This document shows positions 3,602-28,306 of a stretch of DNA of 28,306 bases, in pieces; position 1 is the stretch's first letter, and each line of letters opens with the position of its first letter. This DNA is from a bacterium (GTDB lineage: Bacteria; UBP7; UBA6624; JBBIMK01), in contig JBBIMK010000026.1 in NCBI GenBank assembly GCA_037444445.1, forward strand, positions 1 to 28,306. Reading direction: 5' to 3'. A model generated the notes under the pieces. The model was not told the DNA's origin. It was given only the letters and a program-made list of their open reading frames with translations, and searched no databases. The position numbers and the translations under genes were made by a program.

Positions 3602-4006
3602 GAGGGATGGGTCGGGCGGTCGCTCCTCCGAATTATTCGGGGGGGAGGAAAGTCCGGACTCCACAGGGCAGGACGCTCCGGAAAGCGGAGCCTTCCCGGC
3701 TGAGAAGTTGGGAGGAGGGAAAGTGCCACAGAAACGATACCGCCCCGACATCCTGTCGGGGTAAGGGTGAAAAGGTGGGGTAAGAGCCCACTCCACCCGC
3801 CCGTGAGGGTGTGGTGGGGGCAAACCCCGTCCGGAGCAAGACCAAACAGGAGAGGGTGGTCCCGCCCACTCCGGTTCCCAATGGGAATCGGGGAACTCCG
3901 GGTCGGTCGCTTGACCCCTGATGGGAAAAGTATCAGGGGCAGAGGAATGACCGCCACCCCGGCTTTTGAGTCGGGGAACAGAATCCGGCTTACAGACCCA
4001 TCCTTC
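3602..4006 (+). ncRNA. rnpB: RNase P RNA, bacterial type A
   Basis: Universal blocks are present in order: GGAAAGTCCGGACTCCACAGGGCAG, AGTGCCACAGAAA, GGTAAGGGTGAAAAGGTGGGGTAAGAGCCCAC, GCAAACCCC, and ACAGAATCCGGCTTA. The P1 stem forms between 5' GAGGGATGGGTC and 3' GACCCATCCTTC, followed by a T-run. The ends are approximate to a few nt. Confidence 0.9.
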
Positions 4007-4033
4007 TTTTTATATTCACGCATCGGACTGAGA

Positions 4034-14554: not shown

Positions 14555-14579
14555 AAAGAAACCTCTGGACCCTTACATT

Positions 14580-14846
14580 CTAAATCCGGAAGAGCGGGCG
14601 GGAAATGAGTATCCCAACCGCAGAGACGATGAAAAATCCCGTGGCATATCCCAGCGGCAAGCCTAAAAAACCTAAAAACAACCCGTAGAGCGAAATACTT
14701 TCCATTAGCGACCATTTCACCACCAGATTTCTGACCCTCAAGGCAATAAGAAAGGAAACTCCGGAAATGACCAGGAAGATATAGGTGAGAAGAGAGAGGG
14801 AAGAGGGAGAGAAAGGAATTATAGCCCCGAGCCGAAGCCAAATCAA
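14580..14846 (-). CDS. Possible small membrane protein (TTG start)
   Basis: 88-aa ORF with three hydrophobic segments, unlike the overlapping 128-aa ORF, which does not look protein-like. It has a TTG start, no clear RBS, and no recognised family. Confidence 0.3.
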   Translation of the reverse strand: MIWLRLGAIIPFSPSSLSLLTYIFLVISGVSFLIALRVRNLVVKWSLMESISLYGLFLGFLGLPLGYATGFFIVSAVGILISRPLFRI

Positions 14847-15505
14847 CAGGAAAAGATAATACGCCCCTACCGCCGCCAGAAATGCCCACCAGGAATTTAT
14901 CCGTTATCCTTTCTTCCATCTTTTTTCCACATCTCTCCTCTAATTTTACATTAGATGTGAAACAGGTTGTGCGAAGCCAAAAAGTGAGAGAGAAGAAACT
15001 TCATCACTCCATCTGGAGCGTTCTGTTGGGATGAATAAAAAATCATTTGTTTGCTACTGCTCCCCTGTGATGGGCGGAAAGGAATATTTATTCTGAGAAA
15101 GTTGAATGCGTTTTATCACTCTGTAACAAAAAAAATTTTTACGGGATGCAAATAAAAACGCTCCCCAAAAAATCTAAAAACAGGAGTATAAAAAAATTTA
15201 TGGAATGGATGCGTGAATTCCGGAATGCACTGGAAATTGCGTCTATAACAGGGTTACAAAAAATAGAAAGAAATTATTAAAAAAAACGGGACGAGAATTT
15301 TTTTTCTGCTCTTAGATTTTTTTTCTGATTCCTCTCGCGAAAAAAAATTATGCGAATGATTGCGGATGAATTAAATTCAAAGGGTGAGTTGTGAACACAC
15401 GATGAACACGGGGATTGAAAGGTTTTCATTTTTACTTCTCCAAGAACGAGCAAGAAAGTTTTTGAAAATTTCTTACCAAAATTTACCAAAAAATTGACGG
15501 GGAAC

Positions 15506-15534
15506 TTGACAGTTTGAAAAAAGGCTATAATAAT
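15506..15534 (+). promoter_or_regulatory. Candidate sigma70-type promoter for the kamA operon
   Basis: TTGACA at 15506-15511 is followed 17 nt later by AATAAT (15529-15534), overlapping a TATAAT at 15526-15531 (14-nt spacing). It sits about 70 nt upstream of the kamA start, at the end of the AT-rich gap. Confidence 0.3.
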
Positions 15535-15602
15535 TAGTAGTAAGATGAAGCAAAAGGGCAAAATATGGAGGCTCGAAAATCCCATCGGGGGAGGTGTTCG
15601 GC

Positions 15603-16982
15603 ATGAGCCAGGAGTCTGATGCTTCAGAGGCGGACAAACCGCCCTCATCGGTTTCAACGGTAATTGAGCGTACCCCTTCCGCTTACTCTTATGAGAGAAG
15701 ACTTCCTTATTATGAGGGAGTTTTAGAGGAAGAGTGGAACGACTGGAAGTGGCAGTTGCGGAATGCCATCCGAAGCCTGCGACAACTGGAAAAGGTTTTC
15801 CCTTTAACTCCGGAAGAGAGGGAGCAGATTGCCCAGGTGGGGGATGTGTATCCGATATTGATTTCCCCCTACTATCTATCGTTGATAGAGGTGGACAATC
15901 CCCGGGACCCGATTCGTTTGCAGGCCATTCCATCCGTAGAGGAACTGACAGTGGGGCAGGAACTGGAGGAAGACCCCTTAGAGGAGGAGACGGATTCCCC
16001 GGTTCCCGGGCTGACCCATCGGTATCCCGACCGGGTGCTGATGGTCACCACTGATTTTTGCTCCACTTACTGTCGTCATTGCACCCGAAAGCGATTGTTT
16101 CGTGTGGATTTGCCTCGCCAGAAGTTGCCGGACATTGAGGCAATGATGGCTTACATTCGGGAGCACGAGGAAATACACGATGTCATCCTCTCGGGGGGCG
16201 ACCCCCTCACACTCTCCCTGAACAAACTGGAATACATTTTATCCAACCTGCGGAAAATTCCGCATATAGACATTATTCGTCTGGGGAGCCGGGTCCCCGT
16301 TACCCTGCCCCAGCGCCTGTTTGACAAAGAACTACTCAGTATGCTGGAGAAATATGGACCCCTCTGGTGTAACACCCACTTTAACCATCCCAATGAGGTG
16401 ACGAAAGAGGCCTCTCTGGCGGTGAAAAACCTTCTGTCGGTGGGCATACCGGTAAACAATCAAACGGTTTTATTAAAGGGCGTGAACGACGATGTGGACA
16501 CAATGCGTCAGTTATGTCGCGCCCTATTACGCATCCGGTGCCGACCCTACTATCTCTTCCACTGCGACCCGGTTCGGGGAGCGGCTCACTTCCGCACCTC
16601 CATCTGGAAAGGTATTGAAATCGTGGAAGGCTTGCGCGGGCACATCTCGGGATTGGGAGTGCCTCTATATGTGGTGGATGCCCCCGGCGGTGGCGGGAAA
16701 ATCCCCATTATGCCTAACTACATCCTCTCCGCCAATGACCAGAGCGTGATTCTGAGAAATTACGAAGGGCTGATTGTGAAATACCACCCCTTCGGCGCTC
16801 CTGCCAGAGCCTCATCCCATCCCCCCATCAACGGGAAAAAAATGGATAAAGTGGGAATTATTCGCCTTCTCCAGGGCGAAGAAGGAACCCTCTCGTCTGT
16901 GAAAAGTCCACGATTGGAGCGGAGGAAGCATGCGCGTCGGAATCGCTTACGACCTGAAGAGCGATTACCCCACGAACCCTGA
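15603..16982 (+). CDS. kamA: Lysine 2,3-aminomutase (radical SAM, PLP-dependent)
   Basis: The ATG at 15603 is preceded by GGGGGAGG; the track start at 15594 is a GTG. Motifs are WNDWKWQLRN, TDSPVPGLTHRYPDRVL, the radical-SAM CSTYCRHCTRKR, and VVDAPGGGGKIPIMPNY (PLP lysine). The whole length aligns by eye with clostridial KamA. Both Asp positions that I recall binding the lysine epsilon-amino group are retained (HCDPV, VVDAP). Confidence 0.9.
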   Translation: MSQESDASEADKPPSSVSTVIERTPSAYSYERRLPYYEGVLEEEWNDWKWQLRNAIRSLRQLEKVFPLTPEEREQIAQVGDVYPILISPYYLSLIEVDNPRDPIRLQAIPSVEELTVGQELEEDPLEEETDSPVPGLTHRYPDRVLMVTTDFCSTYCRHCTRKRLFRVDLPRQKLPDIEAMMAYIREHEEIHDVILSGGDPLTLSLNKLEYILSNLRKIPHIDIIRLGSRVPVTLPQRLFDKELLSMLEKYGPLWCNTHFNHPNEVTKEASLAVKNLLSVGIPVNNQTVLLKGVNDDVDTMRQLCRALLRIRCRPYYLFHCDPVRGAAHFRTSIWKGIEIVEGLRGHISGLGVPLYVVDAPGGGGKIPIMPNYILSANDQSVILRNYEGLIVKYHPFGAPARASSHPPINGKKMDKVGIIRLLQGEEGTLSSVKSPRLERRKHARRNRLRPEERLPHEP

Positions 16983-17916
16983 TGCTCCCCAGGACCTGTT
17001 AGAAGAATACGATTCTCCTGAAACGATTGCCGCTTTAGTAGAGGCTCTGCATTCCCTCGGTCATGAGCCTGTGCCGCTGGGCGGTGGCCCTTCTTTCCTG
17101 CAAAAAATTTTATCCACCCGAGTAGAACTGGTATTCAACCTGGCTGAAGGCAGGCAGGGCTTCCGAAGCCGTGAAGCCCATATCCCCGCCGTTCTGGAAC
17201 TTTTAGGCATCCCCTACACGGGCTCCGACCCGTTAACTCTTGCCCTGACTCTGGAGAAATCTCTGACCCTGAAAGTGGTGGCTTCCGCCGGTGTCCCTAC
17301 ACCTCACTTCACCACCGTAAATGGCGCCGACAGCCTTACCCCTCCTTTCTCTTTCCCTCTGATTGCCAAGCCCGTTCACGAAGGCTCCAGTATGGGCTTG
17401 CGCCGCCACTCCAAAATCCTGACCCCTTCTGCTTACCAGCAGGAAATTCAGCGCCTCCGCTCGGATTATCATCAACCCATCCTCGTCCAGGAATTTCTGG
17501 AAGGACCGGAATATACCATTGGCATTCTGGGCAACGGAAAGACCGCTCGGGTTCTCGGCATTATGGAAATTCATCCGAAACTCGCGCCCGTTCCTGAATT
17601 TGTTTATTCCATTGAGGTGAAGCGAAACTTCCGGGAGGAAGTGGAATATCGGGTGAATAATGACCTGCCCCGTCCCCTTCGCCAGGCCCTGGAAACTTTT
17701 GCTCTCACCGCTTACCAGGCCCTCGGATGCCGGGATGTAGCACGGATGGATTTCCGCCTTTCTTCCGATGGCACGCCCCGCTTTCTGGAAGTGAACCCCC
17801 TGCCCGGCCTCCACCCCGTCACCAGCGACCTGCCGATTATGGCTTATGCTGTGGGGTTGAGTTATCAAGACCTGATTGGGGAGATATTGCATCATGCCCG
17901 CGGTAGATATGGATAA
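16930..17916 (+). CDS. D-alanine--D-alanine ligase-like ATP-grasp ligase (substrate unknown)
   Basis: The ATG at 16930 is preceded by GGAGCGGAGGAAGC and overlaps the kamA 3' end by 53 nt. Ddl-family features are MRVGIAYDL..., LLGIPYTGSDPLTLALTLEKSLTLKV, KPVHEGSSMGL and FLEVNPLPGL. Confidence 0.85.
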   Translation: MRVGIAYDLKSDYPTNPDAPQDLLEEYDSPETIAALVEALHSLGHEPVPLGGGPSFLQKILSTRVELVFNLAEGRQGFRSREAHIPAVLELLGIPYTGSDPLTLALTLEKSLTLKVVASAGVPTPHFTTVNGADSLTPPFSFPLIAKPVHEGSSMGLRRHSKILTPSAYQQEIQRLRSDYHQPILVQEFLEGPEYTIGILGNGKTARVLGIMEIHPKLAPVPEFVYSIEVKRNFREEVEYRVNNDLPRPLRQALETFALTAYQALGCRDVARMDFRLSSDGTPRFLEVNPLPGLHPVTSDLPIMAYAVGLSYQDLIGEILHHARGRYG

Positions 17917-19078
17917 AGATAACCCAGAAGCCCCAGCCGTTAAGAACCCCGACGAGAAATCACAAAAGCCTGAAGAGAATATTACTTCTCCACGGACGAA
18001 TGTAGAAGCCGGGGCTCAGCCCCCCGCCACCGCCAGGCCCGGAAAGGGGCTCACCGTGGGTATTCTGTTTAATCTAATGCCCGATTTCAACCGGGAGGAC
18101 ATTAACTCGGTTGTAAGAGCGGTGGAACGGATAGAATCGGTATTGCTAAATCAGGGATATCAAGCCCAACGATTCCAGGCTCACGAGGGGTTACTCCCAT
18201 TCCTTCATCAACTGGAAGCCTCCCAGCCTGATGTGGTTCTCAACCTCTGTGAAGGATACAGGGACAAAACGGAGGGCGAAGTCTACATCGCTGGCATCCT
18301 GGAGATGCTGAACATCCCCTACACGGGCTCCACACCATTCACCCTCGCTCTTGCCCTGGACAAGGTTCGGGCGAAGGAAATCTTCATCGCCCGCCGCATC
18401 CCCACCCCCGCTTATGCCGTCTACGACCAGTATCGCGAAGAAATCCCTCCCCTCTCTTTCCCCTTGATTCTGAAACTTTCCAGAGAAGATGCCTCCGTGG
18501 GTATGACGAATAAAAATGTGGTCTACGATGAGGATTCCTTCTTCCTTCGGCTGAAGAAACTCCTGAAGGAGTATTCTCAGCCCATCCTGGTGGAAGAATT
18601 CATAGATGGACGGGAATTCAATGTGGCTTTCTTGAACGACGAGCCCCTGCCCATTGAAGAAATCCTGTTCAGCATAGAGCCCAAACTGCTTTGCTATAAA
18701 GCGAAATGGGAAGAAGGGTCGGTAGAAGACCGGGGAACGATTCCCGTTTGTCCGCCACGGCTTTCCGCCAGAGAACGCAGAAAAATCCTGAAACTGGCTT
18801 ACGATGCCTACTCCGCCATCGGCGTCCGCGATTATGGCAGAGTAGACCTGAGAATGGATGCCGACGGAAAACTCTATGTCTTAGAAGTGAACCCCAATCC
18901 AGACATCACCTCCGAAGGCGGTTTCGTCCAGTGCTTGAAAGCGGCAGACATTCCTTATGAAACCTTCATCCTGATGCTGGTGGATTTCGCCCTATCACGA
19001 GGGAAAACAAAGAAAAGTTACCGTAAGACCGCTTCCCAGCCCGGGACCGTGCCCTCCACCCCTGACACCCTTTCGTAG
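17894..19078 (+). CDS. Second Ddl-like ATP-grasp ligase with a low-complexity N-terminal extension
   Basis: The start is ambiguous: TTG 17876, ATG 17894 or ATG 17909 (the last forms ATGGATAA, overlapping the upstream stop). After a ~60-aa Pro/Glu/Lys-rich extension come MLNIPYTGSTPFTLALALDKVRAKE, KLSREDASVGM and VLEVNPNPDIT. It is a paralog of the preceding gene. Confidence 0.8.
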   Translation: MPAVDMDKDNPEAPAVKNPDEKSQKPEENITSPRTNVEAGAQPPATARPGKGLTVGILFNLMPDFNREDINSVVRAVERIESVLLNQGYQAQRFQAHEGLLPFLHQLEASQPDVVLNLCEGYRDKTEGEVYIAGILEMLNIPYTGSTPFTLALALDKVRAKEIFIARRIPTPAYAVYDQYREEIPPLSFPLILKLSREDASVGMTNKNVVYDEDSFFLRLKKLLKEYSQPILVEEFIDGREFNVAFLNDEPLPIEEILFSIEPKLLCYKAKWEEGSVEDRGTIPVCPPRLSARERRKILKLAYDAYSAIGVRDYGRVDLRMDADGKLYVLEVNPNPDITSEGGFVQCLKAADIPYETFILMLVDFALSRGKTKKSYRKTASQPGTVPSTPDTLS

Positions 19079-19118: not shown

Positions 19119-19140
19119 TTTGGGGGTCAGACCCCAAAAG
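19119..19140. repeat. Palindromic repeat, copy A (TTTGGGGGTCAGACCCCAAAAG)
   Basis: Member of the TTTTGGGG-N5-CCCCAAAA family. It lies 3 nt downstream of the stop of the 19143..19949 gene. Confidence 0.7.
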
Positions 19141-19142
19141 TC

Positions 19143-19949
19143 CTAATCTTCTATTTTGGTGAGGTCCCGTAAGATTGTATCAAGCGGCGGAATGCCGGTA
19201 ACAGGTGCAGATATCCGGGGGGTGGAACGAGGCACTGCACGCGCGTCCTCAAAGACCTCAGCAACAGGCAGAGGCAATTGTTCGATCGCCCCTCCGAAAG
19301 AAACGATAAGCGCCATCTTATAGTGCCATCCAGGGGTGTAACGGTGGAACACACTTGCCCCGTTTAGACGAACAAACTCGCCATTGCCGTCTCTCCAATA
19401 GAGATACGCCCATTCTACCGGTTCCGCAGGGCCAGTGAAGAATTCGCTTTTCACCTCAACCTGTGTGTCATGCGGAACGAGAAGATAGTACCCGTCCACC
19501 GTGTCCGAGTAGTCAATTCCACTGAATGTAATGGATAGGGCCATCGGTGCTGTCCTGGAGGTGAACCTCAGGGTGCTGCCCAAGTCCTCCACTTCCACGA
19601 CGCGTTTTGGCGGTCCCTGGGCAATTTCCTCTTCCAGTTCCGGCTTGGTCAGGAACCAGGTCGCTTGTATTCTGGATACCCAATTTTTTACACCAGGGAT
19701 GAATTGGGTAAGGGATTTCAAGTCTAATGTTGAGTCTGGCTCAGCCTTCCCAGGCGCGACAAGGGCAAGAACTGCCTGGTTACCCTCCGGTCCCACCCAA
19801 TAAATTACTCCGGAGGAGCCGTCTGGAACAGATATTTTTTCAGTCGAGGCGTCTATGAAATTCATTGGATAGTACGACCGTCCAAATGGGTCAAACATCC
19901 CTCCAGCGGGCAATATCCCAGACCTCCAAATCGTGCTGGAATGTCTCAA
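19143..19949 (-). CDS. Hypothetical protein without a signal peptide, bracketed by palindromic repeats
   Basis: 268-aa maximal ORF with a TTG start at 19949. In-frame ATGs at 19898 (preceded by GGAGGG) and 19865 are alternative starts. No family recognised. Confidence 0.55.
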   Translation of the reverse strand: MRHSSTIWRSGILPAGGMFDPFGRSYYPMNFIDASTEKISVPDGSSGVIYWVGPEGNQAVLALVAPGKAEPDSTLDLKSLTQFIPGVKNWVSRIQATWFLTKPELEEEIAQGPPKRVVEVEDLGSTLRFTSRTAPMALSITFSGIDYSDTVDGYYLLVPHDTQVEVKSEFFTGPAEPVEWAYLYWRDGNGEFVRLNGASVFHRYTPGWHYKMALIVSFGGAIEQLPLPVAEVFEDARAVPRSTPRISAPVTGIPPLDTILRDLTKIED

Positions 19950-19957
19950 ATAATGTC

Positions 19958-19984
19958 ACCTTTTGGGGTCAGACCCCAAAATCT
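19958..19984. repeat. Palindromic repeat, copy B (ACCTTTTGGGGTCAGACCCCAAAATCT)
   Basis: Exact 27-nt duplicate of copy C, lying 43 nt away. The core is a perfect 10+1+10 palindrome. Confidence 0.8.
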
Positions 19985-19991
19985 CAGTTAT

Positions 19992-20195
19992 TTATCTTCC
20001 ACCTTTTGGGGTCAGACCCCAAAATCTTTTCCAATACCGAGCTCTTGACTTGACTAACCAGTACCGAAGAAGTTGGCGCGGCCCATCAGGGTTAGCATCG
20101 TGGGTGGATTGCGAACCCGAGAAAGCAGGTGCACCGAACACCAATAGGAAAACCAGTTCGCTCATAAATAAAGTATGCTTCCGCAACATCATCAT
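19992..20195 (-). pseudogene. Possible remnant of a secreted-protein gene, with only the signal peptide left and the 3' end running into repeat C
   Basis: 67-aa ORF. MMMLRKHTLFMSELVFLLVFGAPAFSGS looks like a Sec signal peptide. Only ~38 residues follow, and the last ones (RFWGLTPKGGR) are encoded by the palindromic repeat itself. Confidence 0.25.
20001..20027. repeat. Palindromic repeat, copy C
   Basis: Identical to copy B. The 16-nt spacer between them is CAGTTATTTATCTTCC. Confidence 0.8.
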
Positions 20196-20289
20196 TCATC
20201 TCCACACTCTTCCGGGTGGGGAACTCGGGGGAATTGGTTATCGCGACGAGATGCCTTTAACATGAAGGTTGGCAAGCGGTCGCTCCGGA

Positions 20290-20320
20290 CACCGTTTGGT
20301 GCCTGACCCCAAAAGGGGTG
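20290..20320. repeat. Palindromic repeat, copy D (degenerate left arm: CACCGTTTGGTGCCTGACCCCAAAAGGGGTG)
   Basis: Shares ~28 nt with copy G (CACCGTTTGGTGCCTGACCC[C]AAAAGGG). The right arm GACCCCAAAA matches the family core. Confidence 0.65.
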
Positions 20321-20340
20321 ATTTTACCGCACCCTCCTTC

Positions 20341-20422
20341 CTTTTTGGCAAGCCCTTCCATCTTCTTCTCTCCCCTCATCTTCCCTATTGCCCTCCGCTC
20401 CCCTTTTCCATCTTATCGGTCG
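20341..20422. repeat. CT-rich (purine-rich on the minus strand) intergenic repeat, copy X
   Basis: Contains GCAAGCCCTTCCAT (20348-20361) followed by CT-rich sequence with CCCTCAT, TCCCT and CCTC blocks. It is alignable with 28210..28276 and lies immediately 3' of a minus-strand gene stop. Confidence 0.5.
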
Positions 20423-21658
20423 TCAGGGGATTCGTATGGGGTAGCCGAGTGCGAACTCATCTATGCCCGGCTTGCCGTTAGAATGAGACTGGATAAAATA
20501 TCCTGAAAACTCTATTCCGTCTCCCGTCAGTGAAGCCAGCACCTGTCCGGGCTTCATTTTCTTCTTTGCTTCCACTGCTTTTGAACCCGATAAGAAAGTG
20601 GGGCTGGCTAAACGGTCCCACAGAAGTGGCCGAGGATTTACAGGGGCTATACGCTCAAACCATTCCTGTACAGAAATACCTGATGGAGGCCTGTCTAAGT
20701 TGGTATAAATATTCCAGGGCAGGGTGGCTGCCTCGGAGAGAAGACGGAACATTGCATCTGTAATGTGGTCTTCCTCCAGCAAATAACTGCCGGGCTTCCC
20801 CTTGCCCGCCACATATATGGATATGCGGAATTCATTTTGAGACCCCGGAAACCAGATGAGAGCAAGTTTTTCTCTTTCCTTCTTCCAATCTACCATCAGC
20901 ACAGGGTTTTTCTGATATGTTGCCGGGAGCTCCCACAGATTCGCACGAGTTTGTTCTACTTCTTCCCATGTTTCGGGGAGACGCTGTGTTATATTGAAAA
21001 AAGTAGAAATGCCTTGCAGAACTGTCAGGAATAATTGGTCTATCTCGCCCAGTCTTTTATTTGGAACCCACTCCCCGTAGCCTGTATAATGAAATGCGGA
21101 AGCCTTTCCGTTGGAGCAGACCAAGATGAAAGACCATCCGTTAGGAAGCCCCCAGGAAGCTGCCCGCCCGGATGGCAAGGATAGGGAAACTTCCTTCAAA
21201 GGATACTGAACTTTTAGATAAGGAAAATCAGGCTCCCGAGAGAATCGCCAGTAGCCCAGGTTCCTGGCAAACACCGCCACAGAATCCAACCATCCATACA
21301 TCTTCAGGATATTTTCCTGCTCTTCTGAGAAGGCTTCAATGAATCGGGCTGTTTTTCCGACTGGTTTGTAGATAACGGGCTGACCTGTTTTACGGGCTTC
21401 TTGACCCACTTCTAACATCTCCTTCTTCCACCGCTTCATTTCTCGTTGCATGCGGAAGAGCAATGACATCGCTTCCTTTACATCATCAGGTGGATTAAGG
21501 TAGATAGAAAAAGCAGATTCAAAAGTTACCGGACAGCGTTGAATATAAGAACACCCCTCTTGTAGGGCAAAGACGCAACAAGTGAGGAATGAAATGAAGA
21601 GTGTAACCTTAGTAAATCCAGTCGCCCGTGCCGTCCTCAGCTCCTTCTCCCCACACAT
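20423..21658 (-). CDS. Hypothetical secreted protein, divergent member of the pseudopilin-motif paralog family
   Basis: The track ORF starts at 21682; ATG 21658 gives MCGEKELRTARATGFTKVTLFISFLTCCVFAL (signal-like). Either start overlaps the upstream gene by 50 or 74 nt, and no ATG, GTG or TTG lies downstream of that gene's stop before the hydrophobic segment. Family-like modules are FFNITQRLPETWEEVEQ...QKNPVLMV and ATLPWNIYTNL...APVNPRPLLW. Confidence 0.6.
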   Translation of the reverse strand: MCGEKELRTARATGFTKVTLFISFLTCCVFALQEGCSYIQRCPVTFESAFSIYLNPPDDVKEAMSLLFRMQREMKRWKKEMLEVGQEARKTGQPVIYKPVGKTARFIEAFSEEQENILKMYGWLDSVAVFARNLGYWRFSREPDFPYLKVQYPLKEVSLSLPSGRAASWGLPNGWSFILVCSNGKASAFHYTGYGEWVPNKRLGEIDQLFLTVLQGISTFFNITQRLPETWEEVEQTRANLWELPATYQKNPVLMVDWKKEREKLALIWFPGSQNEFRISIYVAGKGKPGSYLLEEDHITDAMFRLLSEAATLPWNIYTNLDRPPSGISVQEWFERIAPVNPRPLLWDRLASPTFLSGSKAVEAKKKMKPGQVLASLTGDGIEFSGYFIQSHSNGKPGIDEFALGYPIRIP

Positions 21659-22505
21659 AGAACTCGTGAGCCTGGGTTCCATCTGGTTCTATCCAGTAAT
21701 TATAACTCACATCACCCGGGTGAGGGGTCGCCCATCCGTCATCCATAGGAACTTCCTGGATGAAGCGGCTCTGGAAGGGATTCCACATCTTCTTCAGCAC
21801 AGGGAATCTACGAAGCAACTCAGTGTAGGTGGGAGGTAGAGACCCCATATATTCGTCCTCAAGATTGCTATCGACACGATTGGGGTATATAGATTGAATA
21901 TAGAGAAAGTCCAGTATCCACCCGCACATCCAGGAGCGCTGGACGGTTTCCGGTGCATCAGGCGGATATTTCGGATATGGCTTCTCCTGCTCCTGTTGAT
22001 GATAGATTGATAAGTCAGAACCTGGATAACTGCGAGTATGAAACTGTTTTTCGCCATTGTGAACAACGGCTATTTCCACTGTAAGGTCTTTGGTTTCCGG
22101 ATTATAGGTCCATCGTAGATTCCCGGGAGTTGGATCTGATTCCTCCTGGACCGGCTGTCCTGTATAAGGATTAACTAAATCCTGAGACCGCACACAGGCA
22201 TAGATGGACTGCCCCAGTTGAGAATAAGTTGAGGGATATTGGAAACTGAAAAAAGCCATGGCTGTTACCTCGTCCATAATGTAATCCAGGGTCTGGATAG
22301 CACGAATGTATTTACACCATTCATCAGGGTCCCATCCTTCTGGTGGCGTGCTACAAAACAACCCACCAAACAGAACCGGATCCTCCGGCGGGTCACCTGT
22401 AAGTCCAGCACCACCCCCTCCTTCCAGGCCTACGCCGTTCAACAGAACGCCCAACGCAACCACCAACAAGCCTGTCATCAGGCTTCTTATCCATTTTCTT
22501 TTCAT
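21609..22505 (-). CDS. Hypothetical secreted protein, pseudopilin-motif paralog
   Basis: The ATG at 22505 is preceded by GGAAAGGAGGGATAAGGAA. The signal peptide is MKRKWIRSLMTGLLVVALGVLL. Module 1 is FFSFQYPSTYSQL...LVNPYTGQPVQEESDPTPGNL. Module 2 is GSLPPTYTELLRRF...MWNPFQSRFI. Confidence 0.7.
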   Translation of the reverse strand: MKRKWIRSLMTGLLVVALGVLLNGVGLEGGGGAGLTGDPPEDPVLFGGLFCSTPPEGWDPDEWCKYIRAIQTLDYIMDEVTAMAFFSFQYPSTYSQLGQSIYACVRSQDLVNPYTGQPVQEESDPTPGNLRWTYNPETKDLTVEIAVVHNGEKQFHTRSYPGSDLSIYHQQEQEKPYPKYPPDAPETVQRSWMCGWILDFLYIQSIYPNRVDSNLEDEYMGSLPPTYTELLRRFPVLKKMWNPFQSRFIQEVPMDDGWATPHPGDVSYNYWIEPDGTQAHEFYVWGEGAEDGTGDWIY

Positions 22506-22535
22506 TTCCTTATCCCTCCTTTCCATTTTGAGTAG

Positions 22536-22587
22536 CACCATTTGGTGCCACTATCTTATAGTGGCTTGAACTTTTGGGGGCAGACCC
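22536..22587. repeat. Composite intergenic repeat E: CACCATTTGGTGCC + CCACTATCTTATAGTGG palindrome + CTTTTGGGGGCAGACCC
   Basis: Three adjacent palindromic pieces lie upstream of the 21609..22505 gene. The minus-strand reading GGGTCTGCCCCCAAAAGTTCAA matches copy F on the plus strand, so E is inverted relative to F. Confidence 0.6.
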
Positions 22588-22643
22588 TGGAAGCCCGGAT
22601 GGTAAGGAGAGATAATAAAGTTGAATGTTCATTCTTTTAATCT

Positions 22644-23390
22644 CTAACTGCCTTTTTGAATGGTAGCCTGAATGGTCTGCCGCAATGCTTTTGCTGTGCC
22701 CAGAGGGTATATTGCCACCAGTCTATCCCCTTTGCCAATATAGCGATATAAAACCAGTTCTTTCCAGTTTGCCACATATTTTGGGACAGGAGATTTTACC
22801 TTAAAATCCTTCAATGTGCCCCAGGTGAATAGTTCTTTAATGGGTTTTCCATCCACCGGCGAGACCGGATTTAACTCTAAGGGGTCACCCCATTGCTTCG
22901 CCAGCTCCTCGGGGGTCTCAGGAAATTTGCCTGTGAGCAAAACATATCCTTGAAATGCTGCCCCCAGATTATTCGCCAGCGCCAGAGAGTATCTATCTTC
23001 CCTGTTTTCTTCCGTAGTGGGCGGCTTGAAGGTGTCATTTTTCAAGGTGGTGGTCTGAGAACTGTCCGAAATCCCTGGCAAAGTCAAATGAAGCAACCCC
23101 GGTTTCTCCTTCACAAAAAAATAATCGCCTGAAGATGGATTTTCCTTGCAGAGCATGGGTTTGCCGGTGAACGGGTTCCGGGGATGCCGAAAATACAGAG
23201 GTGAAGTGGTATACTCGGGGCAAGTCTCAGGATAGCGCCCGTTATACACACCCCAGAACTCCAGGGAAGTCAGGAGATACATCCTTTCACCCAGCAGGCG
23301 CATCTGCTCCGGTGAGAGTTTCTCTCGTTGAACCCCTGTCAGAGCGAAAGCTAAACCCGCGGCAATTAAAAGCCACATCCCCTTTTTCAT
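22644..23390 (-). CDS. Hypothetical secreted protein, pseudopilin-motif paralog (clearest GspG-like motif)
   Basis: The ATG at 23390 is preceded by GAAGGAGGGATGCAGA. The N-terminus is MKKGMWLLIAAGLAFALTG. Module 1 is SLEFWGVYNGRYPETCPEY...HPRNPFTGKPMLCKENPSSGDYFFV. Module 2 is AFQGYVLLTGKFPETPEELAKQW...LNPVSPVDGKPI. Confidence 0.75.
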   Translation of the reverse strand: MKKGMWLLIAAGLAFALTGVQREKLSPEQMRLLGERMYLLTSLEFWGVYNGRYPETCPEYTTSPLYFRHPRNPFTGKPMLCKENPSSGDYFFVKEKPGLLHLTLPGISDSSQTTTLKNDTFKPPTTEENREDRYSLALANNLGAAFQGYVLLTGKFPETPEELAKQWGDPLELNPVSPVDGKPIKELFTWGTLKDFKVKSPVPKYVANWKELVLYRYIGKGDRLVAIYPLGTAKALRQTIQATIQKGS

Positions 23391-23413
23391 TCTGCATCCC
23401 TCCTTCTCTATTT

Positions 23414-23827
23414 TCAATTGATTGAACAATCTCCAGTAGCACAGTGAACCAGGTTAAGTGCGGTATCCATAGCCCTGTAGGCGTCATTGTAACAGTCGCA
23501 ATGTGTGGTATTAAACGACATGATTGCACCTATTCTTAAATTTTGACATGTTCCTTTATATCCGGCATACTCACAGCAGGGCACCTCGCATTCCGAATCA
23601 CACTCACCACATTGAGTGCATGCTACCATTAGTATCATCCTTGCCGTACGGGTATTCGTGAGAGTTCCCTCGCAATACCCCCCGCCCGCACAAGGAAAAT
23701 AAAAAGGCGTGGTCCACGTTACAGGGTCTGTAGACTCTGTAGTGCAACAGGCTGCTTCAGCAGTCGCTGCCATCAGCCCCGAAATCACCACCATCATCAC
23801 TACCATCATCATAACTCCCTTTTTCAT
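23414..23827 (-). CDS. Cys-rich secreted protein 1 (137 aa; 15 Cys in the 112-aa mature part)
   Basis: I shorten the 249-aa track ORF to the in-frame ATG at 23827, giving MKKGVMMMVVMMVVISGLMAATAEA as a canonical signal peptide. My reasons: the paralogous cassette at 26151..26247 begins only ~45 nt upstream of this ATG, and the upstream part of the ORF is partly encoded by a palindromic repeat. The mature region is rich in CxxC and CC. Confidence 0.65.
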   Translation of the reverse strand: MKKGVMMMVVMMVVISGLMAATAEAACCTTESTDPVTWTTPFYFPCAGGGYCEGTLTNTRTARMILMVACTQCGECDSECEVPCCEYAGYKGTCQNLRIGAIMSFNTTHCDCYNDAYRAMDTALNLVHCATGDCSIN

Positions 23828-23870
23828 CTTCTGCAACCCCCCCTTCTCTTTTCTTTTGAGGGTCATCCCC
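23774..23870 (-). repeat. Shared 5'UTR + signal-peptide cassette, copy 1
   Basis: ~97 nt that aligns with 26151..26247 with about 4-5 substitutions and 2 single-base indels by eye. Similarity fades at the AEA signal-peptidase site. Confidence 0.8.
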
Positions 23871-23881
23871 ATTTGCCCCTC

Positions 23882-23910
23882 CATATAATATATATCCTCA
23901 GAAGTTGCAA
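23882..23910 (-). promoter_or_regulatory. Candidate promoter for Cys-rich gene 1
   Basis: On the minus strand, TTGCAA (23910-23905), a 17-nt spacer, then TATATG (23887-23882), about 55 nt upstream of the ATG. Weaker than the copy-2 promoter. Confidence 0.3.
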
Positions 23911-24134
23911 AATTTACCAAAACGCCTCTTCTATTATCGTTGTCTTCGCATGTTTTGCATATTAACTTACCCCGATTCTTTTTGAAGCCATTTTTAAGGT
24001 GTGCCTGGAAAACTTTTTTCTCTCGGGGTGGAAGATTTTCCAGCAGGGCAGTCAGTTTCTGCAGTGCCTCTTTTGCCTCCTTTTTCGTCTCCTCCTCGCA
24101 AAGTTTTTCCAGGACATCCTCCTGCCTGCTGGGA

Positions 24135-24158
24135 CTTTTGGGGTCTGCCCCCCAAAAG
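24135..24158. repeat. Palindromic repeat, copy F (CTTTTGGGGTCTGCCCCCCAAAAG)
   Basis: 9-bp arms CTTTTGGGG/CCCCAAAAG with a 6-nt centre, between the 24200..25003 gene stop and the Cys-rich gene 1 promoter region. Confidence 0.7.
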
Positions 24159-24199
24159 TTCAAAAATGGGAAATCAATCTTAGAGAATGGAACGGTTAC

Positions 24200-25003
24200 T
24201 TACGGTAAACGGTTGAGTAAGTTGTCCGGCTTCTGCTTCTCTGCTTTAGGAGGTAGAATATAGTGAGCATGGCAAGGCATCATTTTATCGGCTGGGTTAT
24301 AAGATACTTTATAAATTGCCTTACCTTTGGGAAAGTGGAGCGAGAAAAACACACGCCTATCGGATTGAGCCCAAAGTTTCAGCCTTTTATTTTCCCAGAG
24401 TTCCAGCGGATTTTTCCCTTCCAGTGGGTCTTTCATCATTGTATAGGGTTCTTCTAAAAACTTGAGAAATTCCTCTGGATGGCGTAGCCCTTCTCTACAA
24501 TATGCTCTCATCCACTGACGCATCAAAAGTTGTCCATAACCCACTAACTTCATCTCCTCTTCATCATACCCTGCTTTCAGAGCACGGGCAAAGGGTGAGA
24601 CGGGTGAAGGGTTTCCTTTTCCCCACGGGATGTCCAGTGGATGGTCACCGAGGGAGGAGATTTTCTTCCCGTTAGCACTCCACAGCGTTAATTCAGTGAT
24701 TTTCTCGCCATCAGGAGATAATTGCATGCAGTAGTCACCTGGGGAAGGAGAATCACATACGTTTTTGATAGGTTGACCAGTCAGTGGATTCACGGGCTCC
24801 ATATAAAGGTAGCCTGCTCGGGATATTTCTTCCAGACTTGTGGGTAACTTCCCAAACCGCTCCATATAAATAAATACGGTAGCCTGATAATAATAACCCT
24901 CCCACTTCTCTAACGAGACCGGCTGAGATGTGGCAAGCGTCCCTATCCAGAGAATCAACACATAAATGTTAAAGACTGAAAATCGCGATATTGGCCCCGC
25001 CAT
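24200..25003 (-). CDS. Hypothetical secreted/membrane-anchored protein, pseudopilin-motif paralog
   Basis: 267 aa. The start lies 11 nt after the upstream gene's stop, which suggests coupling. It has a hydrophobic N-terminus (FSVFNIYVLILWIGTLATS). Module 1 is VFIYMERFGKLPTSLEEISRAGYL...PVNPLTGQPIKNVCDSPSPGDYCMQL. Module 2 is AYCREGLRHPEEFLKFL...KDPLEGKNPLELW. Confidence 0.7.
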   Translation of the reverse strand: MAGPISRFSVFNIYVLILWIGTLATSQPVSLEKWEGYYYQATVFIYMERFGKLPTSLEEISRAGYLYMEPVNPLTGQPIKNVCDSPSPGDYCMQLSPDGEKITELTLWSANGKKISSLGDHPLDIPWGKGNPSPVSPFARALKAGYDEEEMKLVGYGQLLMRQWMRAYCREGLRHPEEFLKFLEEPYTMMKDPLEGKNPLELWENKRLKLWAQSDRRVFFSLHFPKGKAIYKVSYNPADKMMPCHAHYILPPKAEKQKPDNLLNRLP

Positions 25004-25014
25004 GTTTTAGATGT

Positions 25015-25764
25015 TCAAGGTGCTCGAAAAAGCACAGGATGAGTTTCGGAGTAAATAAATGAACCATCTTGGATGGTAAAGGTATATCGCCTGCCACCGG
25101 GGAAATCCGGGTCGTTCAGTGGAATAACTTCATTTAACATCGTGGTTTTTGAGACAAGTGGAGCAAATTCAGGGGGAATGTAGGGGCCTAAATCGATCCA
25201 GTTTCCTGGATAATAGTTTCTATCCAACCGGATAAATCGCTCCATAATTGTGGTTTCTGCGATGGTGGCAGAATACATAGTATTCACAAAGGCTACATCT
25301 CTACGCTGTCCTATATCGCTCCATTGGTTTAAGTGCAAGCCCCCTGCATCCGCTTCCACCATATTGGTGTTAATCTTTCTCTCATAATATTTCCATAGAG
25401 TGGGCCCAGACCCTTCATCCACATCCACATAAAAAGATAGAGTAAAAGATGAAGGAAGATTATTCGTAAGAGTATAATGACCCGAAGTAGGAGTCGGTGT
25501 TTCGTGGATTGGAGTATTGTCACAGGGGTTCATCAATAAAGCGGGTAGATAACCCTGGTCATAAAGAGCTTGCGTGGATGCAGGCAAGGAGTTATTGTCA
25601 TAGTAGTAGAGAATGTAAGAATGAGAGATGGATACGGCTTTACCAAGCCAGTTCTTGAATTCTAACGTGTCCTTGATGAGCATATCTCCGCCTTCCTGCC
25701 ACGCCTGAGCCCATCCAGGCAGTAAAATCACCATAAATACCCAAAGATACAATGCTTTTCTCAT
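25015..25764 (-). CDS. Hypothetical secreted protein, pseudopilin-motif paralog
   Basis: The ATG at 25764 is preceded by AAGGAGGCTGAAGAAA. The signal peptide MRKALYLWVFMVILLPGWAQA has an AQA cleavage site. Module 1 is ILYYYDNNSLPASTQALYDQGYLPALLMNPCDNTPIHETPTPTSGHYTL. Module 2 is ERFIRLDRNYYPGNWIDL... Confidence 0.75.
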   Translation of the reverse strand: MRKALYLWVFMVILLPGWAQAWQEGGDMLIKDTLEFKNWLGKAVSISHSYILYYYDNNSLPASTQALYDQGYLPALLMNPCDNTPIHETPTPTSGHYTLTNNLPSSFTLSFYVDVDEGSGPTLWKYYERKINTNMVEADAGGLHLNQWSDIGQRRDVAFVNTMYSATIAETTIMERFIRLDRNYYPGNWIDLGPYIPPEFAPLVSKTTMLNEVIPLNDPDFPGGRRYTFTIQDGSFIYSETHPVLFRAP

Positions 25765-25796
25765 TTTCTTCAGCCTCCTTATATTTTTATTAATTT

Positions 25797-26189
25797 TCAA
25801 GGGTCTTTCCGACACTCATCCCACACATTATCCCCGTCTGAGCACTGGAAACACCTTTGTCCTTCCGGGCAGCCACACTCATTATTCGGATCATAATTGC
25901 ATTTTTTCCCTCTACCGAGAGGAGCGAAAATTGGACAAAAAGAGTTCTGACCTGTAAGACCCAGCCCGCCAGTGGTAGATCCAGTTCCTGTTCCATCTGC
26001 AGAAGAACTCAACGGAAGAAACACGATGCCCTCAGCATTCTGAATTATGGAAATCACGTCGCCATCCCAAATGTCTCGACTAAGACTAACCCACTGATTT
26101 TCGCCATCACACTTACAAACTGAGGGTTTTGCCTCCGCCGAAGAAGCCACCAGCCCCGAAATCACCACCGCCATCACTACCATCATCAT
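25797..26189 (-). CDS. Cys-rich secreted protein 2 (130 aa from the ATGATGATG start; 9 Cys in the mature part)
   Basis: MMMVVMAVVISGLVASSAEA is followed by a Gly/Thr-rich linker and the C-terminal CNYDPNNECGCPEGQRCFQCSDGD. The upstream ATG at 26205, equivalent to MKKG in copy 1, is out of frame because the A-run is 6 here versus 5 in copy 1. GGGAG just upstream of ATGATGATG could serve as the RBS. Confidence 0.6.
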   Translation of the reverse strand: MMMVVMAVVISGLVASSAEAKPSVCKCDGENQWVSLSRDIWDGDVISIIQNAEGIVFLPLSSSADGTGTGSTTGGLGLTGQNSFCPIFAPLGRGKKCNYDPNNECGCPEGQRCFQCSDGDNVWDECRKDP

Positions 26190-26247
26190 AACTCCCTTTT
26201 TTCATTTTCTGCAACCCCCCCATCTTTTTCTTTTGAGGGTCATCCCC
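26151..26247 (-). repeat. Shared 5'UTR + signal-peptide cassette, copy 2
   Basis: See 23774..23870. Confidence 0.8.
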
Positions 26248-26306
26248 CCGCTCCCCTCGCAGTAAATACAAATGTCTTCGCCATTTCTTATCCCTCAGGC
26301 AATTTT

Positions 26307-26335
26307 ATATTACCACAGGCAAAAAAACTTGTCAA
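26307..26335 (-). promoter_or_regulatory. Sigma70-type promoter for Cys-rich gene 2
   Basis: On the minus strand, TTGACA (26335-26330), a 17-nt spacer, then TAATAT (26312-26307), about 100 nt upstream of the coding start. This is the best consensus match in the window. Confidence 0.5.
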
Positions 26336-26364
26336 GTGGGCCCACTTTTTGAGTCAATAGATCC

Positions 26365-26393
26365 CACCGTTTGGTGCCTGACCCAAAAGGGTC
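26365..26393. repeat. Palindromic repeat, copy G (CACCGTTTGGTGCCTGACCCAAAAGGGTC)
   Basis: Near-duplicate of copy D. It lies between the CPBP gene stop (26402) and the promoter at 26307..26335. Confidence 0.65.
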
Positions 26394-26401
26394 CTGAAAA
26401 G

Positions 26402-27412
26402 TTAGTGGGTTAAGAATAGAAATATAATTAACAGAGCGTTCCAGAGAAAGTGAGATGCCCATAAAGGAACCAGGTCGCGCGTTCGTGAAAATACATAAAG
26501 TCTTACCGGAGTGACCAGAATAATAATAGCGGAAAGATAGGGGTCTATCGGCACCCCTGCGTAATAATCGGCGTGGAAAATCGCCCAAACCACGCCCGGA
26601 AGAAGGTAAGGCAAAAAACAGGGTCGAAGCCACTCCTTCAGGTGAACGAACAGGAAAATCACGAGGATTTCTTCCTGAAAAGTGTCAAAGAGAAGGGAGA
26701 CGAATAAATAAAAATAACTCATGTCTATGGAAATTTCAAGGGGCTTTTCAGGTAGTCGCAAAATGTAAACCCAGATAACTCCCAGAATGAGCATCTGGAC
26801 ATATCCTATACCTAATAGCACGAGCGTCCACTTGACCCTTTCTCTGAAACGATTCCGAATGAATCCCAGAGCCTCTACCCGGTTCCACATAACCCATTGG
26901 AAGTATAGGAGGCAAAGAGCATACCAGAAGCGCTGCCCTCCGAAATCGAGGTATCTAAACAGGCGTATGTAGTCCAGTTGATTGAGCCTGCGCCTGGTAA
27001 CCAAATATAGTTCGTGCATCCAGGAGCCCCTGAAGTGTGGGAAATTGCGTAACAAAATGTCCCGCCCAATGTAACTGAGGAGGGGCTTTAAGAGAGGGAA
27101 AATCAACAGGGCTCCGGTTAGATATTTGCCCCAATCTCTCTTCGGTATTTTCAGATGCTTAAATCCCTTCCAGAACACGAGAAAAAAGGCTATAAAGGGA
27201 AGAATGTAGACAAGGCCGCGGTTAACAAAGCCCACACTATAAAGCCATTCATAGCCGTATTTGCACGAATTGAAATCGAAGAACTGGATAACCCAGGAAG
27301 GGAAATAACGGCAGGGAATGGGAATAGGAGGTAAACCTTGAAGCAGTGCCTCATTTACTAATAAAAAGTAAGCAATAACCAGTAAAAGAGAAGTTTTATG
27401 CTCTACTTTCAC
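26402..27412 (-). CDS. CPBP-family (CAAX protease / bacteriocin-processing, Abi-like) intramembrane protease with a long N-terminal polytopic extension
   Basis: 336 aa with a GTG start; highly hydrophobic. The C-terminal third carries FQEEILVIF (EE motif, though the usual Arg at +5 is absent), WAIFH (aromatic-xxx-H) and SHFLWN (HxxxN). The spacings are roughly 30-40 aa, as in PF02517-type proteins. Confidence 0.7.
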   Translation of the reverse strand: MKVEHKTSLLLVIAYFLLVNEALLQGLPPIPIPCRYFPSWVIQFFDFNSCKYGYEWLYSVGFVNRGLVYILPFIAFFLVFWKGFKHLKIPKRDWGKYLTGALLIFPLLKPLLSYIGRDILLRNFPHFRGSWMHELYLVTRRRLNQLDYIRLFRYLDFGGQRFWYALCLLYFQWVMWNRVEALGFIRNRFRERVKWTLVLLGIGYVQMLILGVIWVYILRLPEKPLEISIDMSYFYLFVSLLFDTFQEEILVIFLFVHLKEWLRPCFLPYLLPGVVWAIFHADYYAGVPIDPYLSAIIILVTPVRLYVFSRTRDLVPLWASHFLWNALLIIFLFLTH

Positions 27413-27419
27413 ATATTCT

Positions 27420-28037
27420 CTATTCTATGTCCATCCCTTCCCAGGGGCAATCCACGATGGTACCGCTGGGAAGTCCCTCGGATGTAACAGTCTCACAGTG
27501 ATAGTCATCCAATTCGTTGATGATGCCATCACTGTTTTTATCTTTAATGAGTCCGGCATAGTCCCAGCCAACTCCCGAACAAGAATACTGGTTACTGTTC
27601 TCCTGCCATATTCCACCTCCTGCAATGCAGGAGGTGCGTAGGTTAGCAACTGTGATGTCAAGCGGACAGGGAATTCTTGGATTTTCAAGCCCGGGATTTT
27701 CTGGTCCTTCGGTACAAATCACCTCATCATCACCTGTCTCATTCTCATAGGGTGGTTGATCCCATTTCCCGTCTTTGCCTTTAGGTTGGAATTTGTTGTC
27801 ACCATCATCCGTTAATTGAACATATACTATGTACGGGCAGTGAAGATCGGGGTAGCACGGTTATTCACATGTGTAGTGAGATTTACCAGTACCTGGTGGA
27901 TGAAAGTCCCCCCAGTTAGCCTCACACAATGCCTGAAACGCGTCGCGAATCTTATCAAACCTTCTCTTTTCGCGAAGGGTTCCCCATAGATGACTAAGTT
28001 CACAGGCCGTCATGAGAAATACCATCGCAAGCACCAC
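27420..28037 (-). pseudogene. Cys-rich lipoprotein 3, split by one in-frame TAA (27861-27863)
   Basis: The same reading frame runs from ...RRLKQRITLVVLAMVFLMTAC (lipobox-like LMTAC) through ...GKSHYTCE, the TAA, then PCYPDLHCPYIVYVQLTDDGDNKF... into track ORF 27420..27722. There are 47 open codons between the TAA and the GTG used by the track. No ATG precedes the basic n-region; candidate starts are GTG 28037/28034 and ATG 28025. An EF-hand/dockerin-like loop DKNSDGIINELD is present. Confidence 0.45.
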
Positions 28038-28209
28038 AAGGGTAATGCGTTGCTTCAGCCGCCTGGGGTTCCGAAGATGTGGAATGAACCGCCACTCTCA
28101 CTATCTTCCACCAGAACCTTCTTCACCGGAAGTTACCAGTAAGAAGGAAAATTTGTTTTTGTGAGATTTTTCATCTCACTTTCCGCCCCCTATTTTGAAT
28201 GATTTTTTT

Positions 28210-28276
28210 CTTTTTTGCAAGCCCTTCCATTTTTCCTCTTCCCTTTTCCCTCATTCCCTTGCTCCCTCATCGGGGT
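28210..28276. repeat. CT-rich intergenic repeat, copy Y
   Basis: GCAAGCCCTTCCAT (28217-28230) plus a CT-rich tail, alignable with 20341..20422. It is followed by what may be the stop (TAG, 28277-28279) of a minus-strand gene that runs off the window. Confidence 0.5.
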
Positions 28277-28306
28277 CTACAGCGCCTCCGGGGGACGAGC
28301 CTCCGG

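Follow-up and report, generated by a model that had tools for sequence, protein, structure and literature searches.

What kind of system is encoded where genes for small, predicted secreted proteins very rich in cysteine alternate with genes for exported proteins of no known family? The question is raised by the end of a 28,306-bp contig of an uncultivated bacterium (JBBIMK010000026.1; hereafter the window), whose last ~9 kb, as judged from sequence, appears to be an array of small operons, each encoding an exported Cys-rich protein and one or two exported partners that belong to a previously undescribed family. The minus strand carries all substantial open reading frames (ORFs) from 19.1 kb up to the contig end, and the 3' end of the window falls inside the array. 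In the order of transcription, the genes are Cys3, CPBP, Cys2, g25015, g24200, Cys1, g22644, g21609, g20423, a remnant ORF and g19143. Genes of the partner family follow two of the three Cys-rich genes (Cys1 and Cys2), and a CPBP protease homolog follows Cys3. An earlier note on this DNA had described a modular minus-strand layout, and we confirm both the ORF positions and the presence of palindromes and repeated leader DNA between the modules. The palindromes are of two types, P1 (TTTTGGGGTCWGACCCCAAAA) and P2 (CACCRTTTGGTGCC), the latter found at 20290, 22536 and 26365. The features of the array are as follows.

19119-19139, unstranded: palindrome P1 copy A, just past the g19143 stop; one mismatch to TTTTGGGGTCAGACCCCAAAA; hairpin of -10.5 kcal/mol
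19143-19949, minus strand: g19143, a 268-aa ORF without family match or signal peptide; guanine-plus-cytosine (GC) content 0.52, core-like
19957-20027, unstranded: P1 copies B and C, identical 28-nt copies 43 nt apart (repeat family D1); hairpins of -11.3 kcal/mol, no U-tract after them
19992-20195, minus strand: short ORF, probably a remnant, signal-peptide-like at its start and extending into the palindromes; downstream of the leader-like repeat X
20290-20317, unstranded: composite palindrome P2/P1 copy D (families D1, D8); two hairpins, -17.2 kcal/mol
20338-20412, minus strand: repeat X, resembling the distal portion of a module leader; repeats D9 and D17 in common with 28207-28252; aligns with the leaders of L041 and L050
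20423-21658, minus strand: g20423, probably a lipoprotein; belongs to a separate conserved family whose genes come after those of the g21609 type
21609-22505, minus strand: g21609, a two-domain member of the partner family with no Cys-rich gene of its own upstream
22536-22595, unstranded: copy E, a P2 (22536-22549) with a degenerate P1 (22568-22595) between g22644 and g21609 (families D1, D8)
22644-23390, minus strand: g22644, the partner-family member paired with Cys1; two domains
23414-23827, minus strand: Cys1, predicted to be exported; 15 Cys in the 137-aa precursor, all within the 112-aa mature part
23828-23915, minus strand: shared module leader of Cys1, a 5' untranslated region (UTR) containing the GGAGGGGCAAATGG box, together with a promoter-like box rich in AT; repeats D4 and D6 in common with 26195-26258
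24132-24159, unstranded: palindrome P1 copy F, separating g24200 from the Cys1 module; same place in L001
24200-25003, minus strand: g24200, partner-family member, second partner in the Cys2 module
25015-25764, minus strand: g25015, partner-family member, first partner in the Cys2 module; signal peptide ending in AQA
25797-26189, minus strand: Cys2, predicted to be exported; 9 Cys; signal peptide 80% identical to that of Cys1
26190-26335, minus strand: Cys2 leader with a sigma-70-type promoter (TTGACA, 17 nt, TAATAT; 10 of 12 positions matched); repeats D3, D4 and D6
26365-26392, unstranded: palindrome P2 copy G, past the CPBP gene (families D1, D8); fold of -14.0 kcal/mol
26402-27412, minus strand: CPBP (Rce1-like) protease homolog (PF02517) in the partner position after Cys3
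27420-28037, minus strand: Cys3, rich in Cys and with a lipoprotein-like signal; interrupted at 27861-27863 by a single in-frame TAA
28207-28252, minus strand: repeat Y, leader-like, upstream of Cys3 (families D9, D17)

The partners are best considered first. In an all-against-all comparison, one module of about 70-100 aa proved common to g21609, g22644, g24200 and g25015, each of which has it in two copies. These four are the paralogs expected from the earlier note; a fifth supposed paralog, g20423, matches the domain profile only marginally (E 6e-4 over 27 residues). The profile, built from eight half-proteins and searched against 1.84 billion representative proteins, yielded 115 matches at E <=1e-3; g21609 itself matches it twice (E 1e-29 and 3e-26) and has the homologs P0003, P0005 and P0022. 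About 60 of the matches (metagenomic clusters counted at 50% identity) measure 230-420 aa, are matched over two stretches and have one and the same architecture, namely an N-terminal signal or anchor followed by two tandem helix-and-sheet domains with the NPxTGxP...PGD motif. The long matches were discarded as WD40 false positives caused by the look-alike motif W(N/D)P.TG.P. A hydrophobic signal or anchor is found at the N-terminus of 53 of 61 family members. Nearly all products of the region had been noted to carry signal peptides; g19143 has none and lacks any N-terminal hydrophobic segment. The near-invariant positions of the family are Pro, Asn and Gly, with no conserved residues of catalytic type, a pattern that would fit a binder rather than an enzyme.

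None of the 61 members contains a Pfam domain, all of their source names read "hypothetical protein", and the family has no match in NCBIfam, PADLOC, PHROG or the PDB. Neither did we find relatives in viral contigs, or matches to the partners or the Cys-rich proteins in phage records or plasmid records, and a literature search for the partner motif returned nothing relevant. Word-indexed homolog searches gave near-identical matches only, and a metagenome scan gave one short locus; a homolog of g24200 from another sample (P0001) is 97% identical and P0002 is identical to g25015. The ratios of nonsynonymous to synonymous substitution (dN/dS, Nei-Gojobori) are 0.19 for Cys1, 0.18 for g22644, 0.28 for g24200 and 0.09 for g21609 (versus L041), and the genes are therefore real and constrained.

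The AlphaFold2 model of g22644 calculated from the family alignment (pLDDT 76, pTM 0.71; a single-sequence run reached a pLDDT of only 41) comprises two units, each with a long helix, a short helix, the NPxTGxP loop and a three-stranded sheet. Foldseek searches with this model against the PDB and BFVD gave no match at E <=0.001. The earlier note had labeled the partners as carrying a pseudopilin motif, a label to which neither profile nor fold searches give support. No T2SSG match was found among the window proteins or the 61 family members, no N_methyl prepilin signal among the window proteins (E <=1) or the family members (E <=0.01), whose N-termini are of the Sec type or anchors, and no pilin among all PDB sequences searched with the domain profile at E <=10. 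When a profile of 82 domains is aligned with GspG (EpsG control verified as PDB 3fu1), helix and "YP.t..L" segment correspond co-linearly, yet the score is no more than 9-12 bits and the hhalign probability 10%; this likeness is one of motif only.

The Cys-rich proteins stand out in composition: Cys makes up 10.9%, 6.9% and 5.4% of the three in the window, compared to 0-1.5% for the genes of the first 19 kb. The Cys1 ortholog P0118 is 75-76% identical and keeps all 14 aligned Cys residues of the mature part, including the motif C-x2-C-x2-C-x3-C; motifs of the CxxC type are plentiful. The sole PDB match of mature Cys1 is an iron-sulfur protein aligned over this motif, with an E-value of 3.3 that is far from significant. 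By sequence, the signal peptides of the Cys-rich proteins are of the Sec type and lack a twin-arginine motif. Over about 130 nt the DNA encoding the 5' UTR and signal peptide, the GGAGGGGCAAATGG box included, is 77-86% identical between Cys1 and Cys2, and the mature parts of the two proteins are unrelated, which agrees with the notion of a conserved leader on variable mature domains.

Two of the three genes carry blemishes. In Cys2, translation from an upstream ATG at 26205-26203 would give the signal peptide a lysine-rich start, but a run of six A (26202-26197) in place of the A5 of Cys1 shifts this ATG out of frame; a second 1-nt difference between the two lies 20 nt further upstream. The A6 difference could reflect a sequencing error, decay or homopolymer slippage. 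In Cys3 (11 Cys in 205 codons), the TAA separates a 58-aa lipoprotein-like head from a Cys-rich body of about 146 aa, and the gene is either a pseudogene or carries an assembly error; no homolog of Cys3 was found. Reassignment of TAA was considered for this stop and rejected, as several ordinary window genes end in TAA.

Does the pairing of Cys-rich and partner genes recur elsewhere? To answer this question we used the loci on the fetched contigs that encode family members, most of which are short. In all six independent loci that retain upstream DNA, as well as twice in the window, the first family gene has a Cys-rich gene as its immediate upstream neighbor, so that the pairing proposed from the window alone is borne out in other uncultivated bacteria. 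The upstream genes are as follows.

L042 (near-copy: L045): 13 Cys in the upstream gene
L043: 23 Cys in the upstream gene
L044: 13 Cys in the upstream gene
L046: 15 Cys in the upstream gene
L047 (also on L048): 26 Cys in the upstream gene
L050: 15 Cys in the upstream gene

A Cys content of at least 4.5% is found in 7 of the 55 genes called in the related loci, and six of these seven are the upstream neighbor. One or two family genes follow each Cys-rich gene. Apart from orthologs, the Cys-rich proteins are mutually unrelated, with marginal similarities between L042 and L046 and between L043 and L047 (both E ~0.01) and a short, weak one between L044 and Cys3; in the longer proteins it is the C-terminal domain that is rich in Cys. 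The module of L047 (3621-7121, "bacterium JZ-2024 1") has a TldD/PmbA peptidase pair and a PhoU-like gene immediately upstream, which may be a coincidence.

The modules also move. Locus L050, which comes from a relative, has orthologs of Cys1 and of g22644 (the latter 70% identical) in the arrangement known from the window. Beyond the g22644 ortholog come a palindrome, the leader once more, and then a Cys-rich gene of another kind, orthologous to the one that precedes P0012 in L044. As this L044-type module, not g21609, follows g22644 in L050, the module order differs from that of the window. In L041 (1-98) a leader of the Cys type runs straight into a homolog of g21609, with an ORF of eight codons (MKIRRDRR) left between them; the gene after it is a homolog of g20423 (33% identity, E 2e-53). 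Both here and in the window g21609 has no Cys-rich gene, therefore the g21609-g20423 pair has been kept effector-less in two genomes. Where the relationship to g21609 is more distant (L042, L046), the upstream Cys-rich gene is still there; in L046 a g20423-like gene apparently comes next, judged from the short ERIAP motif alone, as BLAST did not recover it. With the altered order in L050 and the effector-less pair in L041, the array does not behave as core genome of invariant order. Core genes at least 90% identical to those of the window are present on a related Logan contig of 15.9 kb, and the array genes of related strains were met on contigs of 1-2 kb only, as would be expected if assemblies break where the DNA is repetitive or variable.

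The head of the modules (UTR plus signal peptide) is near-identical among paralogous modules of one genome and different across genomes. Repeats X and Y align with the distal part of the module leaders of the relatives; there are therefore five module heads in the array, of which one now heads only a decayed ORF (19992-20195, probably the decayed head of a further module). Promoters had been proposed at both palindromes F and G: that of Cys2 is called by the consensus scan and that of Cys1 is not. Rfam recognizes no known RNA in the module leaders. In an open frame upstream of Cys1 (~23990-24120, minus strand), about 40 aa resemble region 4 of an extracytoplasmic function (ECF) sigma factor (TIGR02937, E 0.0026); the fragment is also present in the related strain fragment L001 and is probably the truncated remainder of a sigma-factor gene after a rearrangement.

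With up to three mismatches allowed, TTTTGGGGTCAGACCCCAAAA has nine strand matches at five sites (0.01 expected by shuffling) and none within 1-19 kb, and weaker copies are present at 22568 and 26365. Within the window P1 and P2 are confined to the array, with each copy at a module boundary, and P1 keeps its position in L001, which is 97% identical. The hairpins are stable (-8 to -17 kcal/mol), with runs of U and A within the stem; we considered classical intrinsic terminators and rejected them, because no U-tract follows the hairpin on the coding strand. The exact 21-nt palindrome also occurs on at least eight contigs of the unrelated Clostridia metagenome-assembled genome RGIG7681, apparently as a dispersed repeat, and elsewhere once or twice per genome (the contigs that carry it include L002, L008, L010, L016, L028, L031 and L037-L040).

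The array also differs from its flank in composition. The GC content falls from 0.50-0.57 across most of the first 19 kb to 0.44-0.48, and that of third codon positions from ~0.60 to 0.43-0.53 (~0.12 lower), so that the impression of a more AT-rich region, originally gained by eye, proved correct. A separate dip to ~0.40 is seen at 14.5-16 kb, where two minus-strand ORFs (14533-14919 and 15277-15933) have no Pfam match.

Among ten locus proteins compared with Pfam, NCBIfam, PADLOC and PHROGs, the CPBP homolog is the only one with a match, in accord with the view that no other family is recognizable here; sensitive searches likewise place no other ORF in a well-characterised family. Its match to PF02517 (27.6 bits with a cut-off of 22.4, E 3.6e-6) covers positions 5-93 of the 93 in the profile, and the protein has five transmembrane-like segments. 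Of the catalytic motifs, it shows EE at 247, FxxxH (as FLFVH) at 253 and HxxxN (as HFLWN) at 321, without the Arg of the first. A C-terminal CAAX signal as its substrate was considered and rejected, as the C-termini of the Cys-rich proteins are inconsistent. The gene g20423 appears to represent a conserved family of its own and not a clear partner paralog; no protein of this type has a Pfam match in the window or in the related loci. Whether g19143 belongs to the array system is uncertain.

How are these data to be read? The anatomy of the modules, the recurrent pairing, the purifying selection, the shuffling of modules and the partner pair without effector are observed. By analogy with toxin-plus-immunity loci we tentatively favor, at somewhat less than an even chance, a locus of secreted disulfide-rich effectors and cognate periplasmic protective partners, exchanged as cassettes. 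In this scenario each cassette would start with a shared promoter, 5' UTR and signal-peptide head, continue into a variable exported disulfide-rich effector, and have one or two cognate extracytoplasmic partners, membrane-anchored or periplasmic, translationally close behind; in one cassette a CPBP membrane protein would hold the partner position. The effector would be exported by Sec and then oxidized in the periplasm, where the partner, on the periplasmic face of the inner membrane, would bind and neutralize the effector of its own cell or of a neighbor. The shared heads and the inter-module palindromes would allow cassettes to be duplicated, swapped and lost by recombination, and such loss would leave partner genes retained without an effector. 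Outer-membrane export, toxicity and protection by binding are what we infer beyond the observations. We arrive at this reading because a variable effector stands behind a conserved head with an adjacent partner, because there are partner-only modules, because the composition is atypical, because the partner does not look enzymatic, and because a CPBP protein occupies the partner slot; Abi/CPBP proteins give self-immunity in class II bacteriocin loci. A more far-reaching version, which we hold to be possible and a shade more doubtful, would see here a new class of cassettes, in which Sec-exported, unrelated disulfide-rich effectors are each accompanied by a tandem-domain periplasmic partner lacking known relatives and are exchanged via shared heads and palindromes, with the partners representing either a new immunity fold or pseudopilin-like cargo adaptors.

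Several points weigh against the toxin-and-immunity interpretation. The Cys-rich proteins, both of the window and of the related loci, match no family, the mature parts of Cys1 and Cys2 have no significant PDB sequence match, and no known toxin domain is among them. Two different partners stand behind one effector in Cys2, L042 and L047, which is unusual for immunity. The 28-kb contig encodes no ABC exporter, secretion system or lysis gene, and it stops within the locus. At the level of whole genes, selection is purifying, not diversifying. The CPBP homolog lacks the Arg of the EExxxR motif and was not met in the other loci, which are mostly short. Finally, an effector-less partner could just as well serve Cys-rich proteins whose genes lie in other parts of the genome.

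Some of these difficulties would disappear if the Cys-rich protein were the client of a dedicated chaperone or secretion adaptor, with the partner guiding disulfide-dependent folding or handing the cargo to an outer-membrane route, e.g. as a pseudopilin-like adaptor for a type II secretion system encoded elsewhere. Several partners per client are easier to understand for assembly factors than for immunity; both proteins are predicted to be exported, co-transcribed in a fixed order and under purifying selection; and the elements of the modeled partner domain (long helix, short helix, loop, three-stranded sheet) follow the order of the pseudopilin globular domain, with the weak co-linear GspG likeness over the helix and "YP.t..L". 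However, where the Cys-rich gene has been lost (L041, g21609 of the window), partners have been retained behind a leader of the Cys type, and a client-less dedicated chaperone would have no role there. Moreover, pseudopilins are matched significantly neither in sequence nor in fold, prepilin signals are missing, and no secretion-system genes are nearby: the contig has no assembly ATPase, platform protein, secretin or prepilin peptidase, as the earlier note had remarked of the machinery for type II secretion and type IV pili and of ABC exporters. On balance we consider an assembly or adaptor function unlikely, though the most serious of the rivals.

Still less probable, in our opinion, is that the Cys-rich products are metal-binding or thiol-redox proteins of the periplasm or surface, which the partners anchor or regulate, and that the array serves environmental adaptation, not antagonism. 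The abundance of CxxC-type motifs, the conservation of every aligned Cys and of C-x2-C-x2-C-x3-C in the Cys1 ortholog, and even the non-significant match of that motif to an iron-sulfur protein (E 3.3) point in this direction. Yet Sec signals without a twin-arginine motif make export of a cofactor-loaded protein unlikely, a common biochemical role would not be expected of mutually unrelated proteins, cassette shuffling and partner-only modules would go unexplained, and no metal transporters or regulators adjoin the array of the window. One may finally suspect decaying hypervariable DNA, i.e. ORF remnants among repeats like repetitive extragenic palindromes (REP), with no coherent system, in view of the stop in Cys3, the frameshifted start of the Cys2 signal peptide, the signal-peptide remnant, the sigma-factor fragment and the contig break inside the locus. 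This idea is largely refuted by conservation and has very little to recommend it: four genes have dN/dS of 0.09-0.28, about 60 partner clusters maintain the two-domain architecture, the gene pairing is kept across distant loci, and the alignment supports a confident AlphaFold2 model.

In comparison with characterized systems, the layout appears to be a variation on the known theme of effector-partner cassettes, built from new families. Polymorphic toxin/immunity loci (contact-dependent inhibition (CDI), Rhs and related) can hold orphan immunity cassettes, and the array resembles them in the conserved head with a variable C-terminal effector region and the partner gene immediately downstream, as well as in the tandem cassettes, shuffled between relatives, the partner-only modules and the atypical composition. 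The effectors of the window, however, are small, Sec-type and disulfide-rich and not large filamentous or Rhs-encased toxins, their locus has no known toxin domain or associated secretion system, and the partners, of which one effector may have two, form a new family of predicted exported proteins with two domains. Class II bacteriocin loci of Gram-positive bacteria share with Cys3 and g26402 the succession of a small exported Cys-containing protein and a CPBP-family protein, and with the array in general the use of one leader type on different mature peptides. On the other hand, the leaders here are Sec signals instead of double-glycine ones, an ABC exporter with a C39 peptidase domain is missing, the mature proteins have 110-260 aa, and the main partner family is not CPBP. 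Besides, the organism of the window has a class A RNase P RNA, in contrast to the class B form typical of Bacillota. The likeness to bacteriocin or polymorphic-toxin loci that had been suggested for this region is consequently a partial one: it extends to the pairing and the variability of the cassettes, but not to any toxin domain or export system on the contig.

The partners themselves invite comparison with two kinds of protein. With GspG (T2SSG; PDB 3fu1, 1t92) the modeled domain shares the succession of a long helix and a small antiparallel sheet, a "Y..g.yP.t..eL" segment past the helix and a Pro/Gly-rich loop before the sheet; it differs in that the partners have two tandem domains behind a Sec signal or anchor instead of a class III prepilin signal, and in that no significant profile or fold match was obtained. 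The colicin M immunity protein Cmi is periplasmic and membrane-anchored, and its small helix-plus-sheet domain protects outside the cytoplasm. The partners likewise have an N-terminal anchor and helix-plus-sheet domains, with a protective role that is hypothetical here, but they are tandem two-domain proteins of 240-420 aa, for which we detected no sequence or fold relationship to Cmi.

The first 19 kb of the window contain a few other loci worthy of mention. The class A RNase P RNA lies at 3604-4008 on the plus strand (251 bits) and is overlapped by a 388-aa ORF (3767-4933) without family match, at least the 5' part of which is probably not a gene. Between 7763 and 14554, a protein of 1303 aa with TPR repeats and a DnaJ domain is encoded beside a 936-aa S8 subtilase with a weakly dockerin-like C-terminus. 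The plus strand at 15594-19078 encodes a radical SAM aminomutase of the KamA family and, behind it, two ATP-grasp proteins similar to D-Ala-D-Ala ligases, whose genes are in tandem and overlap; by sequence, these may constitute a small pathway of beta-amino-acid ligation adjoining the array.

If the array indeed encodes effectors and their immunity proteins, it would reveal a new partner or immunity fold together with a pool of unrelated disulfide-rich antibacterial proteins from lineages never cultured, and it would exemplify polymorphic effectors that depend on Sec and do not ride on a known specialized secretion system. If, on the contrary, the partners turn out to be chaperones or secretion adaptors, they would represent a new way of exporting Cys-rich cargo. 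Whichever reading holds, the strict linkage of the partner family to Cys-rich genes provides a usable rule for annotation and a small, testable unit of two genes.

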